From Myxococcota bacterium (GTDB lineage: Bacteria; Myxococcota_A; UBA9160; JAFDDA01): a stretch of 64,000 nucleotides of DNA. Made by a program: the position numbers and the translations under genes. Under the pieces are notes generated by a model. The model made no database searches. It was not told the DNA's origin and saw nothing but the letters and a program-made list of their open reading frames with translations. The DNA is taken from positions 2,848,001 to 2,912,000 of the forward strand of contig OZ245817.1 of the NCBI GenBank assembly GCA_965228475.1, in the 5' to 3' direction. Positions 3,327 to 9,230 of this stretch are shown piece by piece (position 1 is the first letter of the stretch; each line of letters starts with the position of its first letter).

Positions 3327-4694
3327 CTATTCCAAGTAGCCGAGGGCCCGCAAGGCGTCCCGCTCGGCTTCACTCAGCGTGTTCACGCGAGCGGCCTCGC
3401 GACGCTGCGCGTCGGCGCGGCCGATCTGCTGCGCCAAGAGCTCCTCGAGCCCCTCGTCTGGCGGAACCACCTCTCGGTAGCCGGGCATCCCACCCTCGGG
3501 AACCAGCTCAGCCACTCGCTGCGGCAGTGGGGTCAGTTCGCCGCCCGTCATTGGATCCCGGATCGGCTCGTCGAACCCGTCGCGGTCTCGAGCAAAATAG
3601 CTGCCCCCGAGAACGATGGCGCCACGCTCCCGATGCTCGGCGAAGACCGCGCGATCGCCAGGCGGAGCCTCCTGCAGCGGATGTCCCAGGAAGCTCTCGG
3701 GGACCTCGAGGCCCGCGGCCACCAACAGTGTCGGAGCCACATCGACCACGCTCGCTGGACCGACGACCCTTCGCTCCTTTCCCGGTTCCAACGGGCGCAG
3801 CAAGAGCGGCACTCGAATCTGGTCCAACCCGACCGAGTGCCCGTGAGCGAAGTAGTAGCCATCCTCTCCGAATGCCTCACCGTGGTCGGACGTAAGGAGG
3901 ACGAAAGGCGGCGTTCCAAGCGAGTCGACTCCGTCGATCAGTCGTCTGAAGTGCTCATCGAGGTAACGGATCTCGTCGACGTAGCGCCGGGCATACGCCT
4001 CGAAGCTACGCAGGCCCGGCAGAACCTGGTACCGCGGAATCCCTCCGCGCCCCGAGTGGTCGTCGAGCACCTTCAGGCGCTTCTCCTCGGGGACGTCTTC
4101 GCCGACTAGCCGGCTGGTGGGCGGTTCGTAGGGGCCGTGAGGATCTTGATAGTGCACCCACAGAAACCACGGCGGCTCGGCCCTCTTCACCCAGGCCAGG
4201 GCGGCCCGGGTCGTGTCGCCCGCGGAACGCTCTACGAGGTGTGGGCGACTCCGCTCGGGCATCGACATACGGTCGTCGTAGACGTCGAAACCCCGCTCGA
4301 GCCCTCGGCCCCGCGCAACGACCGGGTTCGAAACGAATGCTGCCGTGCTGTAGCCCGACGCACGCAAGCGCTCCGTCACCGTCACCACGTCTTCGCGGAG
4401 GCGGCTGACTGCCGCCTCGGTCAGGCCGTGCCCGGAGGGATAGCGGGACGTCAGCACCGACCCGAGGGAGGGTGCCGTCGACGGCGCCGTCGAGAACGCC
4501 CAGACGAACTGGGCGCCCGAGTCAGCAAGCGCGCAGATCGAAACACCTGCGCCCGGCTCTCCGCCATAGCAGGCCAGACCGTCCGCACGCAGCGTATCGA
4601 CGGTCACAAGCAGAAGATTGGGCGGAGGCCCCGGCTCCGCGCAGGCGGCAGCGAGCAACAGCGGCAGCACCAGAAGGGCTTTCCCCAGCTTCAT
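3327..4694 (-). CDS. Sulfatase-like alkaline phosphatase superfamily protein, probable lipoprotein
   Basis: PNLLLVTVDTLRAD, HYQDPHGPY, TSDHGE, HGH, C-terminal LRALGY; signal peptide ending LAAAC; start chosen at MKLGK. Confidence 0.85.
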   Translation of the reverse strand: MKLGKALLVLPLLLAAACAEPGPPPNLLLVTVDTLRADGLACYGGEPGAGVSICALADSGAQFVWAFSTAPSTAPSLGSVLTSRYPSGHGLTEAAVSRLREDVVTVTERLRASGYSTAAFVSNPVVARGRGLERGFDVYDDRMSMPERSRPHLVERSAGDTTRAALAWVKRAEPPWFLWVHYQDPHGPYEPPTSRLVGEDVPEEKRLKVLDDHSGRGGIPRYQVLPGLRSFEAYARRYVDEIRYLDEHFRRLIDGVDSLGTPPFVLLTSDHGEAFGEDGYYFAHGHSVGLDQIRVPLLLRPLEPGKERRVVGPASVVDVAPTLLVAAGLEVPESFLGHPLQEAPPGDRAVFAEHRERGAIVLGGSYFARDRDGFDEPIRDPMTGGELTPLPQRVAELVPEGGMPGYREVVPPDEGLEELLAQQIGRADAQRREAARVNTLSEAERDALRALGYLE

Positions 4695-4792
4695 CGCCGA
4701 GAGCTTATCGCGAATGCAACAGGCGGCTGGTCCCCGGTTCATGACATCCTACAATCCGGCGAGCGCCAGCCCCGGGATGGAGGAGACCACGC

Positions 4793-6166
4793 TTGCAGCC
4801 CTTGGAGCAGGGACCTGCACCGGAAACTGAAGAAGAGCGCATTCCGACCCGCGAGATCCTCGTCTACAGCGCCCCCGTCCTCGGCGTTTTCTTTGCAAAT
4901 ACGCTGATCTCCTTCTACTTCCTGAAGTACACCACGGACGTCCTGCTGATCGCTCCGGCGATCGCGGGGACGATCCTCCTGGCCGGCCGGGTGTGGGACG
5001 CGGTGACGGACCCGCTGATCGGCCATTGGTCGGATCGCACGCGCTCGCGGCTCGGCCGGAGGCGGCCGTGGTTCCTGGCCTCGGCGATCCCCCTGGGCTT
5101 GGCGGTCGTCGCCCTGTGGAGTCCGCCCGCAGCCCTCGAGGGGCGCGCGCTCACCCTCTGGCTGCTCTTCACGTTCCTGATCTATCTGACCTTCTACACG
5201 ACGTTCCGCGTCCCCCACATGGCCCTCGGCGCCGAGCTCACGCGCGGCTACCACGACCGGACGCGCGTGTTCGGCGTGATGCAGGTGGTCGAGAACGTCG
5301 GCATCCTGCTGGCCGCCGGCGGGCTCGCCTTCCTCGAGAACGCCGACGCCCCGCGCGAGGCCGCCGCACAGCTCTCGCGCGGCATCGCCGTCCTCATCAT
5401 CGCGCTCATCCTGTGGACGACCTGGCGCGTCCGGGAGCGCAGCGAGTTCCAGGGGCGCGGGCGCGCCGGCTCCTACCGCGCGTTCCGCGAGGTCCTCGCC
5501 AACCCGCACGCGCGCCTGCTCGTCGGGATCTTCTTCCTCGAGCAGCTCGGCTTCTCGACGCTGCTGATCCTCTTCCCGTACCTCTCGGACTACCTCGTCG
5601 GAACGCCGGGGCAGACGTTCATCTACCTGATGGCCGCGATCGTCTCGATGGCCGCGAGCATCCCCTTCTGGATTCCGGTCTCCCGCCGGTTCGGGAAGCA
5701 GCGGGTGTGGATCGTCACCCTGGGCATCAAGATCGCCGTCTTCGGCGGCCTGTTCCTCGTGGGTGAGGGCGACTCGATCCTCCTCGCCTCGGGCGCCATC
5801 GCCTTCGGGGTCCTCTCGGGCGCCGGCAACGTCGTCGGCCCCTCGCTCAAGGCGGACGTCATCGACTGGGACGAAGCGGAGAGCGGGGAGCGGAAGGAAG
5901 GCGCCTACTTCGCCGCCTGGAACTTCGTCCAGAAGGCCGCCGGGGGCTTCGCGGGCTGGATGGTCGGCATCACGCTGAGCGCCACGGGCTTCGTGCCGAA
6001 CGAAGCCCAGTCCGAGGCCGCGCTGCTCGGGATCAAGCTTCTGGCTTCGCCGTGGCCGCTGCTCCTCCACGTCTTCGCCCTGGCCCTGGTCTGGCGGTTC
6101 GCGCTCGACGAGCGAGCACACCGGGATGCCCGGGACCGCGCGCGAAGGGAACAGGCGGGCCGCTGA
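4793..6166 (+). CDS. MFS transporter, glycoside-pentoside-hexuronide (MelB-like) family
   Basis: About 12 hydrophobic segments; WDAVTDPLIGHWSDRTRSRLGRRRPW; ADVIDWDE..GERKEGAYFA. Confidence 0.9.
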   Translation: MQPLEQGPAPETEEERIPTREILVYSAPVLGVFFANTLISFYFLKYTTDVLLIAPAIAGTILLAGRVWDAVTDPLIGHWSDRTRSRLGRRRPWFLASAIPLGLAVVALWSPPAALEGRALTLWLLFTFLIYLTFYTTFRVPHMALGAELTRGYHDRTRVFGVMQVVENVGILLAAGGLAFLENADAPREAAAQLSRGIAVLIIALILWTTWRVRERSEFQGRGRAGSYRAFREVLANPHARLLVGIFFLEQLGFSTLLILFPYLSDYLVGTPGQTFIYLMAAIVSMAASIPFWIPVSRRFGKQRVWIVTLGIKIAVFGGLFLVGEGDSILLASGAIAFGVLSGAGNVVGPSLKADVIDWDEAESGERKEGAYFAAWNFVQKAAGGFAGWMVGITLSATGFVPNEAQSEAALLGIKLLASPWPLLLHVFALALVWRFALDERAHRDARDRARREQAGR

Positions 6167-6244
6167 ACCTCCCTGCGCGCCGAGACTTCCACCGATCATC
6201 TTCCGCCCGGGGTATCCTCCCCTCTCCAACCCGAAGGAGGCCCC

Positions 6245-6718
6245 ATGGCCAGCATGCACGACTTCTCGATGGAATCGATCACGGGCGACACGGTCGCGCT
6301 CTCCGAATACGAAGGCGACGTCTGTCTGGTCGTGAACCTCGCCAGCCGCTGAGGCCTCACCGGCCAGTACGCAGGTCTGCGTACCCTTCACGAAGACAAC
6401 GACGGCTTCCAGGTGCTCGGCTTTCCGTGCAACCAGTTCGGCGCCCAGGAGCCCGGGACGAACGCGGAGATCCTCGCGTTCGCCCAGAACGAGTACGGCG
6501 CGAACTTCCCGATGTTCGCCAAGACCGAGGTCAACGGCGACGGCGCCTGCGAGCTCTATCGCTTCCTCAAGGCCGAAGCCCCCGACGAGGAGGGCAACCC
6601 GGACATCCCCTGGAACTTCACGAAGTTCCTGGTGGGCCGGGACGGTCGGGTGCTGAAGCGCTATGCGCCGCAGGTCACGCCCGAGCAGATCGCGGAAGAG
6701 CTCCCGTCCCACCTCTAG
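6245..6718 (+). CDS. gpx: Glutathione peroxidase family protein with in-frame UGA (selenocysteine) at codon 36
   Basis: AAGGAGG RBS then ATG at 6245; reads MASMHDFSMESITGDTVALSEYEGDVCLVVNLASR-TGA-GLTGQYAGLRTLHE..GFPCNQFGAQEPG..IPWNFTKFLV; TGA 6350-6352 lies at the catalytic Cys/Sec position. Confidence 0.93.
6367..6384 (+). promoter_or_regulatory. Putative bacterial SECIS hairpin
   Basis: GTACGCAG-GT-CTGCGTAC, a perfect 8-bp inverted repeat starting 14 nt after the TGA, with a G-led apical loop. Confidence 0.8.
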
Positions 6719-6741
6719 AACGATCTCCGCGAAAGGACCGA

Positions 6742-7875
6742 ATGGAACTCCACGGCTTCTGCGAACCCGGCTTCGAGCCCGTGCGCGACGCCTTCGTTGC
6801 GAACTTCGAGCGCGGCGCCGAGGTCGGCGCGTGCTGTGCCGTCACCCGCAACGGCGAGCCGGTCGTCGACCTCTGGGCGGGCGACGCCATCCAGGGCCAG
6901 GCGCCCTGGCGGGAGGACACGATCGTCAACGTCTACTCGACGACGAAGACGATGGCGGCGATCACGATGCTGGTCCTCGCCGACCGGGGTCTCCTCGACT
7001 TCGAGGCGCCGGTGGCGCGCTACTGGCCCGAGTTCGCCGCCCAGGGCAAGGAGACCGTGAAGGTCAAGCACGTCATGAGCCATTCGACCGGGCTTTCGGG
7101 CTTCGAGCCCGCGCTCGGTTCGATCGACGAACTCTACGATCGGAAGGCCATCGCCGAGCGGCTCGCGGCCATGACGCCCTGGTGGGACCCCGGGGAGGGC
7201 TCCGGCTATCACGCGGTCACCCAGGGACAGCTGCAGGGCGAGATCGTGGAGCGCATCACGGGCAAGACCCTCGGCACCTGGTTCCGGGAGGAGATCGCGG
7301 AGCCGCTCGGCGCCGATTTTCACATCGGCCTCGACCCCGCACACGACGCGCGCGTCGGCGAGCTCGTACCGCCCGAATCGGGGCTCGCGACCCCTCCCGG
7401 CGGCCGCGAGTCCATCGCGGCACGCACCATGCGGAGCTGCCCGATCACCGGTCTCGAACCGCGCACCGAAGCGTGGCGCCGGGCCGAGATCCCGGCGGCG
7501 GGCGGCATCGGCAACGCTCGTGCCGTGGCGCGGATCCACTCGATGATGGCCTGCGGCGGCGAGGTCGACGGCGTGCGGATCCTCTCCGAAGCCGGTGCGC
7601 TGCGAGCCCTCGAGGAGCAGACGAACGGCCCGGATCAGGTGCTGATCCTTCCGATCCGTTTCGGATTGGGCTTCGGTCTGGTCAGCGAGACCTTCCCTCT
7701 CTCCCCGAACCCTCGCTCATGCTTCTGGGGCGGGTGGGGCGGCTCGCTCGCGATGATCGATTTCGACGCGCGCATCTCGGCGTCGTACGCGATGAACAAG
7801 ATGGAGGGGAATCTCGCCGGCGACGCCCGGGGCGGCAGCATCCTGCTTTCGGTCTACAAAGCGCTCGGAAGCTGA
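6742..7875 (+). CDS. Serine hydrolase, beta-lactamase class C-like esterase
   Basis: MELHGFCEPGFEPVRDAF, YSTTK, SGYHA, WGGWGGS; AAGGA RBS. Confidence 0.9.
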   Translation: MELHGFCEPGFEPVRDAFVANFERGAEVGACCAVTRNGEPVVDLWAGDAIQGQAPWREDTIVNVYSTTKTMAAITMLVLADRGLLDFEAPVARYWPEFAAQGKETVKVKHVMSHSTGLSGFEPALGSIDELYDRKAIAERLAAMTPWWDPGEGSGYHAVTQGQLQGEIVERITGKTLGTWFREEIAEPLGADFHIGLDPAHDARVGELVPPESGLATPPGGRESIAARTMRSCPITGLEPRTEAWRRAEIPAAGGIGNARAVARIHSMMACGGEVDGVRILSEAGALRALEEQTNGPDQVLILPIRFGLGFGLVSETFPLSPNPRSCFWGGWGGSLAMIDFDARISASYAMNKMEGNLAGDARGGSILLSVYKALGS

Positions 7876-7901
7876 GACCCCGCGAGGCACCGGCGCACGC
7901 G

Positions 7902-9230
7902 ATGTACCGACTCTACTCCTGGGAGCACAGCTACTTCTCCGGCAAGGCCCGCGCGTACCTGCGCTTCAAGGAACGCGCCGGCGCCCTCGCTCCGGGCTGG
8001 GAGGACGTGCTGGCCACCCCCGAGCTGATCACCGGGCGGCTCATCCCGCGCTCGGGTTCGAACGCCGTACCCCAGCTCGAGGCGCCCGACGGCACGTGGA
8101 TCCAGGACACGTCCGAGATCATCGACTTCGTCGAGGCGGCCCACCCGCAGACGCCCGTCGTCCCGGACCCCGCCCGGGCGCCGCGCCAGTGTCTCGCCGC
8201 CTACCTGATCGAACTGTTGGCCGACGAGTGGATGCTCGTGCCGGCGTTCTGGGAGCGCTGGTTCTTCAGCGAGGACGGCCGCAGCCCGAGCCACCGCGCC
8301 TTCAACGAACAGCAATGGGGTGCGGTCTTCGCGGCGGGTGCGCCGGGCGAGGCGCGCCGGGCCGCCGCCGCGGGGCTCTTCGAAGAGATGTTCGGCATCT
8401 CCCACAGCCGCGACGAACCGAAGGGCACCTACGCGGGGCTGGTCCATCTCGGCTGCGACGGAAAGACCGAGCGCGCCTGGCAGGCAAGCCAGCACCGGGT
8501 GCTCGGGCTGCTCGAGGCCCACTTCGCGCGCCACGACTACGCCTTCGGCGGCCGGCCGAGCCTCGCGGACTTCGCCCTCCTGGGCCCGCTCTACGCCCAC
8601 CTCTATCGCGACGCGGTCTCGGGCTTCGCGCTCCGCACGTTCTTCCCGATCACCACCGAATGGGTCGAACGCACGAACGGCGAAGGCGCGCTCAACGCCC
8701 GCCAGTGGGGCCAGCAGCTCTACTCCCTCGGTGACGACGGCGAGCTCGTCGGCCGGGCCGCGACGAGCGACGGGGGAGACTGGCTCGCCGACGACGTCGT
8801 CCCCGACACCTTGCATCCGCTGCTCGGAGTCTTCTTCGAAGAGATGTGGCCCGTTCTCGCGAGCAGCATGCGCGTGCTCGGAGACTTCATCGCGAGCGAC
8901 GCCCACGAGCCCGGCGGCCCGCTCCCCGGCGGAAGCTTCATGGCGACGCCCGGGTTCTGGGACGTCCAGACCGGCAACGGGCCGCTGACCCACGAGTTCG
9001 AGATCGGAGGCATCGCCTCCCGACGCATGGTGGCCCCCTACCAGGTCTGGATGCTCGGCCGGCTCGCCGAGGTCCTCGAGCGCTGCATCGGAACGGCCGA
9101 GGGCCGGCGCTCGATCGAGGGTCTCCTCTCGAGCCACCCGAGCGCGCTCGAGTTGCTCGAGCTCCCCGAGCGTCTCGCCCGGTGCCGGGTCGAGAAGGTC
9201 GGGGGACGGCTCCGGTCGGCCAGCGCCTAG
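7902..9230 (+). CDS. Large glutathione S-transferase family protein
   Basis: SYFSGKARAYLRFK, AVPQL..DGTWIQDTSEII, GGRPSLADFALLGPLYAHLYRD. Confidence 0.8.
   Translation: MYRLYSWEHSYFSGKARAYLRFKERAGALAPGWEDVLATPELITGRLIPRSGSNAVPQLEAPDGTWIQDTSEIIDFVEAAHPQTPVVPDPARAPRQCLAAYLIELLADEWMLVPAFWERWFFSEDGRSPSHRAFNEQQWGAVFAAGAPGEARRAAAAGLFEEMFGISHSRDEPKGTYAGLVHLGCDGKTERAWQASQHRVLGLLEAHFARHDYAFGGRPSLADFALLGPLYAHLYRDAVSGFALRTFFPITTEWVERTNGEGALNARQWGQQLYSLGDDGELVGRAATSDGGDWLADDVVPDTLHPLLGVFFEEMWPVLASSMRVLGDFIASDAHEPGGPLPGGSFMATPGFWDVQTGNGPLTHEFEIGGIASRRMVAPYQVWMLGRLAEVLERCIGTAEGRRSIEGLLSSHPSALELLELPERLARCRVEKVGGRLRSASA

Follow-up and report, generated by a model that had tools for sequence, protein, structure and literature searches.

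A glutathione peroxidase gene of a Myxococcota bacterium with TGA at the peroxidatic codon is very probably a selenoprotein gene

A reading frame that would encode a complete glutathione peroxidase (GPx), were it not for a TGA exactly where the peroxidatic residue is expected, raises the question of whether this codon is a stop, an error or a site of selenocysteine (Sec) insertion. Such a frame is found on the plus strand of the window (the whole 64,000-nucleotide stretch of DNA analysed here), which occupies C1:2848001-2912000 of a genome available as a single contig of 5.0 Mb with an estimated completeness of 96%. The gene at 6245-6718 very probably encodes a GPx4-like peroxidase of 157 residues with Sec at position 36 (U36), referred to below as Sec-GPx. 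This reading is preferred because the frame contains an in-frame UGA followed by a hairpin, because both of these are conserved, and because the machinery for Sec insertion is present in the genome. The features of the locus are as follows:

6234..6240, plus strand: Shine-Dalgarno sequence AAGGAGG, 4 nt 5' of the ATG at 6245, read directly
6245..6718, plus strand: complete coding sequence of the predicted Sec-GPx, with ATG at 6245, 157 codons and a TAG stop at 6716-6718
6350..6352, plus strand: UGA codon of the predicted U36, the peroxidatic residue, in a U-G-L-T (UxxT) motif, assigned from the in-frame reading and conservation
6367..6384, plus strand: predicted SECIS apical hairpin, with a 7-bp stem (6367-6373 with 6378-6384) and a GGUC loop (6374-6377)
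6413..6718, plus strand: 101-aa fragment of the ORF finders and of the public gene call, with a GTG start and without the catalytic residue

Read from the ATG at 6245 with TGA taken as U, the frame yields 157 residues, including the segments VVNLASR-U-GLTGQY, GFPCNQFGAQEPG and WNFTKFLV, and contains one in-frame TGA, no frameshift and no further stop. Most of the orthologues described below (11 in total) likewise have a purine-rich motif of the GGAG type 5' of their ATG. The GSHPx domain (PF00255) was matched by residues 4-109 over profile positions 1-108 of 108, with an E value of 5.4e-36 and a score of 122.9 bits (cut-off 27). The motif N-x-A-S-x-[C/U]-G of the GPx family is present as VVNLASR-U-GLT, and the residues U36-G-L-T39 form a UxxT motif inside PF00255, the Thr39 of which is invariant in 11/11 orthologues. 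Hence the ribosome-binding site, the start codon, the position of the TGA and the 157-aa GPx frame named in the original prediction were all recovered on re-reading of the sequence. The same is true of its observation that the ORF track holds a 101-aa piece only: the sole part of the GPx gene in the ORF list is the one at 6413-6718. Its claim that standard pipelines would truncate the gene proved literally true, as the public protein collection entry for the source contig of 5,006,157 bases (P0023) is exactly this 101-aa C-terminal fragment. According to the accessible part of PMC13188914, the truncation of selenoprotein genes by such pipelines is routine. A scan of 5900-7000 for promoters and terminators found none.

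On another reading, the locus would give rise to two products, namely a leader peptide of 35 residues that terminates at the UGA and a 101-aa protein initiated at GTG 6413. The 101-aa ORF does exist and is what the pipelines call; however, the fragment would be devoid of the catalytic residue and of the first third of the GSHPx domain, the protein sequence of codons 37-56, which separate the TGA from the GTG, is conserved in every orthologue, and no ribosome-binding site was noted 5' of 6413 in the sequence read. The probability of two separate products is therefore practically negligible.

A TGA at this position could also be produced by a sequencing or assembly error, the true codon being TGC or TGT. 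The contigs of three sequencing runs (X1-X3, from two studies) cover 6100-6800 with 0 differences, although these runs may be the source data of the assembly itself and thus not independent of it. A marine-metagenome contig from a fourth run (X4), which is 98% identical and covers 6100-6452, shows 7 differences in 353 bases, and the six of them that are listed all fall outside both the TGA (6350-6352) and the hairpin (6367-6384), the seventh not being listed. Since the orthologues of other genomes carry the same TGA and nothing was found that would favour an error, such an explanation is hardly credible at all. Taken together, the contigs and the orthologues rule out that the putative Sec codon stems from faulty sequencing or from a nonsense mutation of recent date.

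The conservation of the TGA was followed in 41 related genomes, the host genome included. A GPx match was obtained in 31 of them, and 11 (again with the host), which are spread over several families of the order, harbour an orthologue with exactly one internal TGA, at 63-74% identity and with residues 1-157 covered. In the translated alignment the TGA column always coincides with the Cys column of Cys homologues that are 45-55% identical. When 301 genomes sampled evenly across the phylum were considered, a TGA-bearing orthologue was present in 20, of which 17 belong to the same order, 1 to another order of the class and 2 to other families of the phylum. Among the best 80 named loci of the species-representative genome collection, the codon in question is TGA in 15, TGC in 50 and TGT in 15 cases, the TGA loci originating from MAGs titled Myxococcales, Gammaproteobacteria, Pseudomonadales, Pseudomonadota, Acidimicrobiia and 'Deltaproteobacteria'. 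The set of DNA-checked TGA genes thus comprises 26 members (11 from the relatives and 15 from the named loci), and because an in-frame TGA recurs in the same column in these genes, its placement is far beyond chance.

A further group of homologues came from the protein database, where the full-length matches (n = 115) contain Trp at the peroxidatic site in 38 cases (P0008, P0012, P0014 and 35 others) and Cys in 76, while 1 could not be placed. The W would result from gene callers having switched to code 4 to read past the TGA of short contigs from metagenomes, and the 38 Trp-bearing entries therefore evidently represent further putative Sec forms. Sec-containing GPx is thus common in metagenomes.

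The diversity of codons 2-35 by codon position 1/2/3 amounts to 0.30/0.185/0.50, which is the pattern of a translated sequence, and both halves of the gene, on either side of the TGA, are under coding constraint. These data bear on the possibility that the locus is a pseudogene, in which a TGC or TGT codon for Cys has mutated to TGA and which is decaying while a Cys paralogue does the work. Close Cys homologues do reach up to 72% identity to Sec-GPx (P0001), and the genome does possess a Cys-type GPx gene at C1:2327635-2328069 (minus strand; L033:1384-1818). Yet a decaying gene would not be expected to keep the same TGA in 26 DNA-checked genes across several phyla, to retain coding-type constraint on both sides of it free of frameshifts and extra stops, or to be followed by a hairpin whose conservation is confined to the TGA-bearing forms. 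A pseudogene is accordingly an extremely unlikely explanation.

The hairpin mentioned above starts 17 nt after the U of the UGA and is predicted to fold into a perfect 7-bp stem with the GGUC loop at +24. Its folding energy alone is unremarkable (z = -1.6; 12/200 shuffles fold at least as well), and it is the comparative evidence, not the energy, that carries the weight for this putative SECIS element. A hairpin occurs at the same offset in 11/11 orthologues, with 100% of the helix cells paired. In two of the 11 sequences one stem pair is changed from C-G to U-A, a synonymous TAC>TAT being coupled with CGT>CAT (Arg to His). In a distant MAG (L042) another stem pair is changed from G-C to A-U, and two other loci have U-G in place of U-A. 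Six of the seven stem pairs are invariant within the order and hence speak neither for nor against pairing. At third codon positions the diversity amounts to 0.085 over the six codons of the hairpin, whereas the FPCNQFGxQEPG block, which is invariant as protein, reaches 0.386 and other regions 0.45-0.53. The codons to which the hairpin is fixed are seldom used in three genes nearby, where GCA, GGT and CGT account for 8%, 9% and 9% of the codons of their amino acid, respectively. In addition, the hairpin was found in 0/9 Cys homologues of the relatives and in 0/4 Cys forms inside the Sec-rich clade, whereas its exact 10-nt core is kept in 12 of the 15 TGA loci of named genomes.

The core of the hairpin, GCAGGTCTGC, is identical to the SECIS core of fdhF of E. 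coli K-12. This identity extends over the whole 10-nt apical core GCAGGUCUGC (three base pairs and the GGUC loop), which is also read in the same frame (Ala-Gly-Leu). The two elements differ in that the loop of fdhF lies at +21 from the U of the UGA and that of Sec-GPx at +24, and in that the SECIS of fdhF has a bulged U, whereas the predicted hairpin of Sec-GPx is a perfect 7-bp helix without one; the host proteins are unrelated. Both the bulged U and the G and U of the loop matter for the binding of E. coli SelB. A stem-loop directly after the UGA with a G in the small apical loop, as found here, is the bacterial SECIS feature described in the accessible text of PMC1088965. An Rfam search of 6000-7000 with E values of up to 10 matched no SECIS family, and a Guanidine-III match obtained in the same interval is ascribed to chance, as its 14 bits fall well short of the gathering score of 36. 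The lower SECIS stem, in which the UGA would pair with the UCA at 6388-6390, is not claimed either: it is 93.9% paired, shows zero compensatory changes and is broken in 2 sequences.

All four components of the Sec-decoding machinery were identified in the genome. They are a tRNA-Sec (69.9 bits, Rfam gathering score 47), called by ARAGORN as tRNA-SeC with the anticodon TCA, a SelA (460.5 bits), a full-length SelB with a SelB wing-3 domain (TIGR00475, 310.9 bits, cut-off 242, model positions 2-580 of 581) and a SelD (TIGR00476, 257.5 bits). The Sec system appears to be used elsewhere in the genome too, since a gene of the UGSC family (NF041046) at C1:4424173-4424598 (minus strand; L115), which scored 151.7 bits (cut-off 125), carries one in-frame TGA and is another predicted selenoprotein gene. 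SelA was detected in 11/11 TGA-bearing relatives, and the TGA form was found in 0/7 relatives in which SelA was not detected. This co-occurrence is consistent with the Sec reading but weak, because SelA is present in 34 of the 41 relatives and the relatives are not independent of one another.

The SelD mentioned above forms the C-terminal portion of an ORF of 743 aa (C1:3887471-3889702; L011:283-2514, plus strand), the N-terminal 300 residues of which match Pyr_redox_2 (pyridine nucleotide-disulphide oxidoreductase, E value 2.6e-28) and are followed by AIRS and AIRS_C. SelD fusions of this kind have been described previously. No in-frame stop was found in this ORF, so that SelD is not itself a selenoprotein.

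The genes around Sec-GPx are as follows:

3327-4742, minus strand: sulfatase
4793-6166, plus strand: MFS_2 sugar-type transporter
6742-7875, plus strand: beta-lactamase-family serine hydrolase, starting 24 nt after the GPx stop
7872-9230 (frame), plus strand: ORF containing a GST C-terminal domain, at a distance of about 1.2 kb or more 3' of GPx

TGA terminates both of the adjoining genes, MFS on the 5' side and the beta-lactamase-family gene on the 3' side, and 7/11 of the TGA-bearing orthologues have TGA as their own terminal stop, so that the code is not reassigned. No obvious redox operon is formed around Sec-GPx by the sulfatase, MFS_2, beta-lactamase-family and GST-domain neighbours.

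The UGA may nonetheless be thought to be decoded in some other way, be it by a reassigned code (Trp or Gly), by near-cognate read-through or by the insertion of Cys through the Sec machinery. The 38/115 database homologues read with W leave a code-4 reading formally open, and mammals are known to insert Cys at Sec codons when selenium is scarce. However, TGA is in ordinary use as a stop in the neighbours and orthologues, and an enzyme with Trp or Gly at the peroxidatic site would be inactive. Moreover, the genome has a dedicated tRNA-Sec along with SelA, SelB and SelD, and a SECIS-like hairpin would have no role under a reassigned code. Decoding other than by Sec is thus very unlikely.

The inference of the original prediction that the organism makes a Sec-GPx is, in the light of these results, strongly supported by the machinery, the pairing with Cys, the contigs, the coding constraint and the hairpin. 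The genes selA, selB, selD and selC, for which it had suggested a search of the genome, are all four present; the TGA pairs with Cys in the homologues, as it had expected; and the TGA itself is present in the contigs of four sequencing runs. Its view that the recoding is site-specific and does not reflect a change of the code agrees with the TGA stops of the neighbours and of 7/11 orthologues. The conserved SECIS hairpin, a feature that had gone unmentioned there, adds further to the Sec reading.

Bacterial Sec-containing GPx has been on record as a selenoprotein family since 2004-2005. In Table 1 of PMC1088965 it appears among the known selenoprotein families, with 5 Sargasso Sea sequences and 1 in sequenced genomes, and the UxxT motif for GPx selenoproteins is given in Table 3 of the same paper. 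In Table 1 of PMC13188914, a review of 2026, the entry 'GPX-like protein, PF00255, UxxT' stands under 'Predicted with high confidence' and not under 'Experimentally verified'. The protein predicted here shares with this prokaryotic GPX-like family the Pfam domain, the Sec at the peroxidatic position within U-x-x-T and a SECIS element inside the coding sequence, and no difference in kind is apparent when it is set beside the published descriptions and tables, rather than the sequences, of that family. Judged by its sequence, it thus displays every trait by which members of the family are recognised; the family is already known, and Sec-GPx leaves the general knowledge of selenoproteins unchanged.

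The nearest solved structures are all chains of the GPx family, the best being 26jk with an E value of 1.7e-40. Mammalian GPx4 (e.g. PDB 2obi, 5l71) was matched by phmmer over nearly its full length with E values of 1e-37 to 6e-33, and it is likewise a short, monomer-type enzyme with an active-site Sec, Gln/Trp/Asn partners and no canonical resolving Cys. The two are decoded differently, however, as mammalian GPx4 depends on a 3'-UTR SECIS, SBP2 and eEFSec, whereas Sec-GPx would rely on a SECIS within the ORF and on SelB. In the accessible part of PMC1088965 it is argued that at least some bacterial and eukaryotic Sec-containing GPx evolved independently. The 2-Cys enzymes poplar GPX5 (2p5q, E value 3e-38) and yeast Hyr1/Orp1 (3cmi, E value 3e-35) have the same fold, belong to the same family and share the peroxidatic motif except for a Cys instead of the Sec, but they possess a resolving Cys where Sec-GPx has Ala80.

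The proposed decoding follows the established bacterial Sec pathway. As the ribosome approaches the UGA at 6350-6352, SelB carrying Sec-tRNA(Sec) would bind the GGUC-looped hairpin at 6367-6384 within the coding sequence and would deliver Sec at the UGA in place of termination. The tRNA-Sec would be charged through SerRS and SelA, with selenophosphate supplied by SelD.

In the catalytic cycle, by analogy with GPx chemistry, the selenolate would reduce a hydroperoxide and be converted to selenenic acid, aided by Gln68, Trp123 and Asn124. By the numbering of GPx4, these three residues are presumably the partners of the peroxidatic residue in the catalytic tetrad, and they are invariant in 11/11 orthologues and in 214/214 aligned rows. 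The selenenic acid would then form a selenenylsulfide with an external thiol and return to the selenolate, a GPx4-like cycle being favoured. Regeneration is more likely to consume two thiol equivalents than to proceed through an intramolecular disulfide. Sec-GPx has Ala80 where Cys stands in the F-C-x-x-x-[YF]-G block of the 2-Cys subclass. We take position 80 to be that of the resolving Cys of the 2-Cys thioredoxin-dependent GPx enzymes. With Ala at the canonical resolving position, an intramolecular disulfide is improbable, and Sec-GPx is therefore probably devoid of the peroxiredoxin-like route of 2-Cys GPx. Cys at position 80 was found in 0/64 TGA forms versus 93/150 Cys forms, a contrast much of which is phylogenetic, because the entire Sec-rich clade is without the resolving Cys.

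The reductant is the least certain step of the mechanism, and the confidence expressed above applies to the Sec-GPx reading alone. Glutathione may well serve in this capacity and is modestly favoured, and a glutathione synthetase gene, gshB, is present in the genome (356.8 bits). Another thiol or a redoxin, possibly acting through Cys102, is a plausible though somewhat less probable reductant. As Cys102 is present in 38/64 TGA forms, it is not essential.

The history of the Sec and Cys forms was approached with a FastTree tree of 215 rows and 159 columns, which included the 26 DNA-checked TGA genes, 74 Cys locus forms and 115 database proteins, the latter of at least 150 aa, shorter truncated matches having been left out. 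All TGA forms but one fall inside a clade of 136 rows with 96% local support. Over the 214 labelled rows, the Sec/Cys label changes 22 times on the tree, and at least 7 of these changes are forced by well-supported branches. Shuffled labels gave a mean of 55.3 changes, and 0/500 shuffles were as low as 22. Switching between Sec and Cys can thus be claimed to be frequent, as far as a short, unrooted tree with many weak forks allows, and no direction is claimed for it. This agrees with the dynamic Sec/Cys exchange pictured in the accessible part of PMC1794560.

The single TGA form outside the clade, from a Myxococcales MAG (L090, match 1501-1971), is a Sec-GPx of a different GPx subclade. The hairpin after its TGA is also different, with a 6-bp stem and an AGGUG loop. 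The resolving-Cys position is occupied by Ala in this form but by Cys in its four nearest Cys neighbours, which looks like an independent history of change from Cys to Sec or from Sec to Cys.

On these grounds it may tentatively be suggested that the large clade is a distinct bacterial GPx lineage, which would be characterised by the absence of a resolving Cys, by repeated Sec/Cys swaps (at least 7) and by one near-invariant SECIS common to MAGs titled Myxococcales, Gammaproteobacteria and Acidimicrobiia, with Sec accompanied by an absent resolving Cys in both independent Sec lineages. Eukaryotic GPx enzymes are split into those with Sec and no resolving Cys and those with Cys and a resolving Cys; should the suggestion hold, bacteria would repeat this split. 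In that case the clade would also offer natural replicates in which to ask under what conditions Sec is more profitable than Cys, and it would be in line to yield the first bacterial Sec-containing GPx with biochemical validation.

For annotation, the consequence of the Sec reading is more immediate. It corrects a public call that consists of a fragment from which the catalytic residue is missing. Entries for related genes are either truncated or carry W at the active site, and as a result the gene content of such bacteria is underestimated, as are their antioxidant capacity and their selenium dependence. It would also add a well-supported case from a single-contig genome to a family which Table 1 of PMC13188914 still lists as predicted, and it provides a clean set of Sec/Cys pairs. 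As the SECIS shares its core with that of fdhF, expression in a heterologous host may be possible.

The second GPx gene of the host genome, the Cys-type gene on the minus strand, is 49% identical to the Sec form. Its product has FPSNDF in place of FPCNQF and a Cys at the canonical resolving position (EFCRSTYG). With this Cys paralogue beside the Sec form, the genome is therefore predicted to hold one GPx of each mechanistic type.
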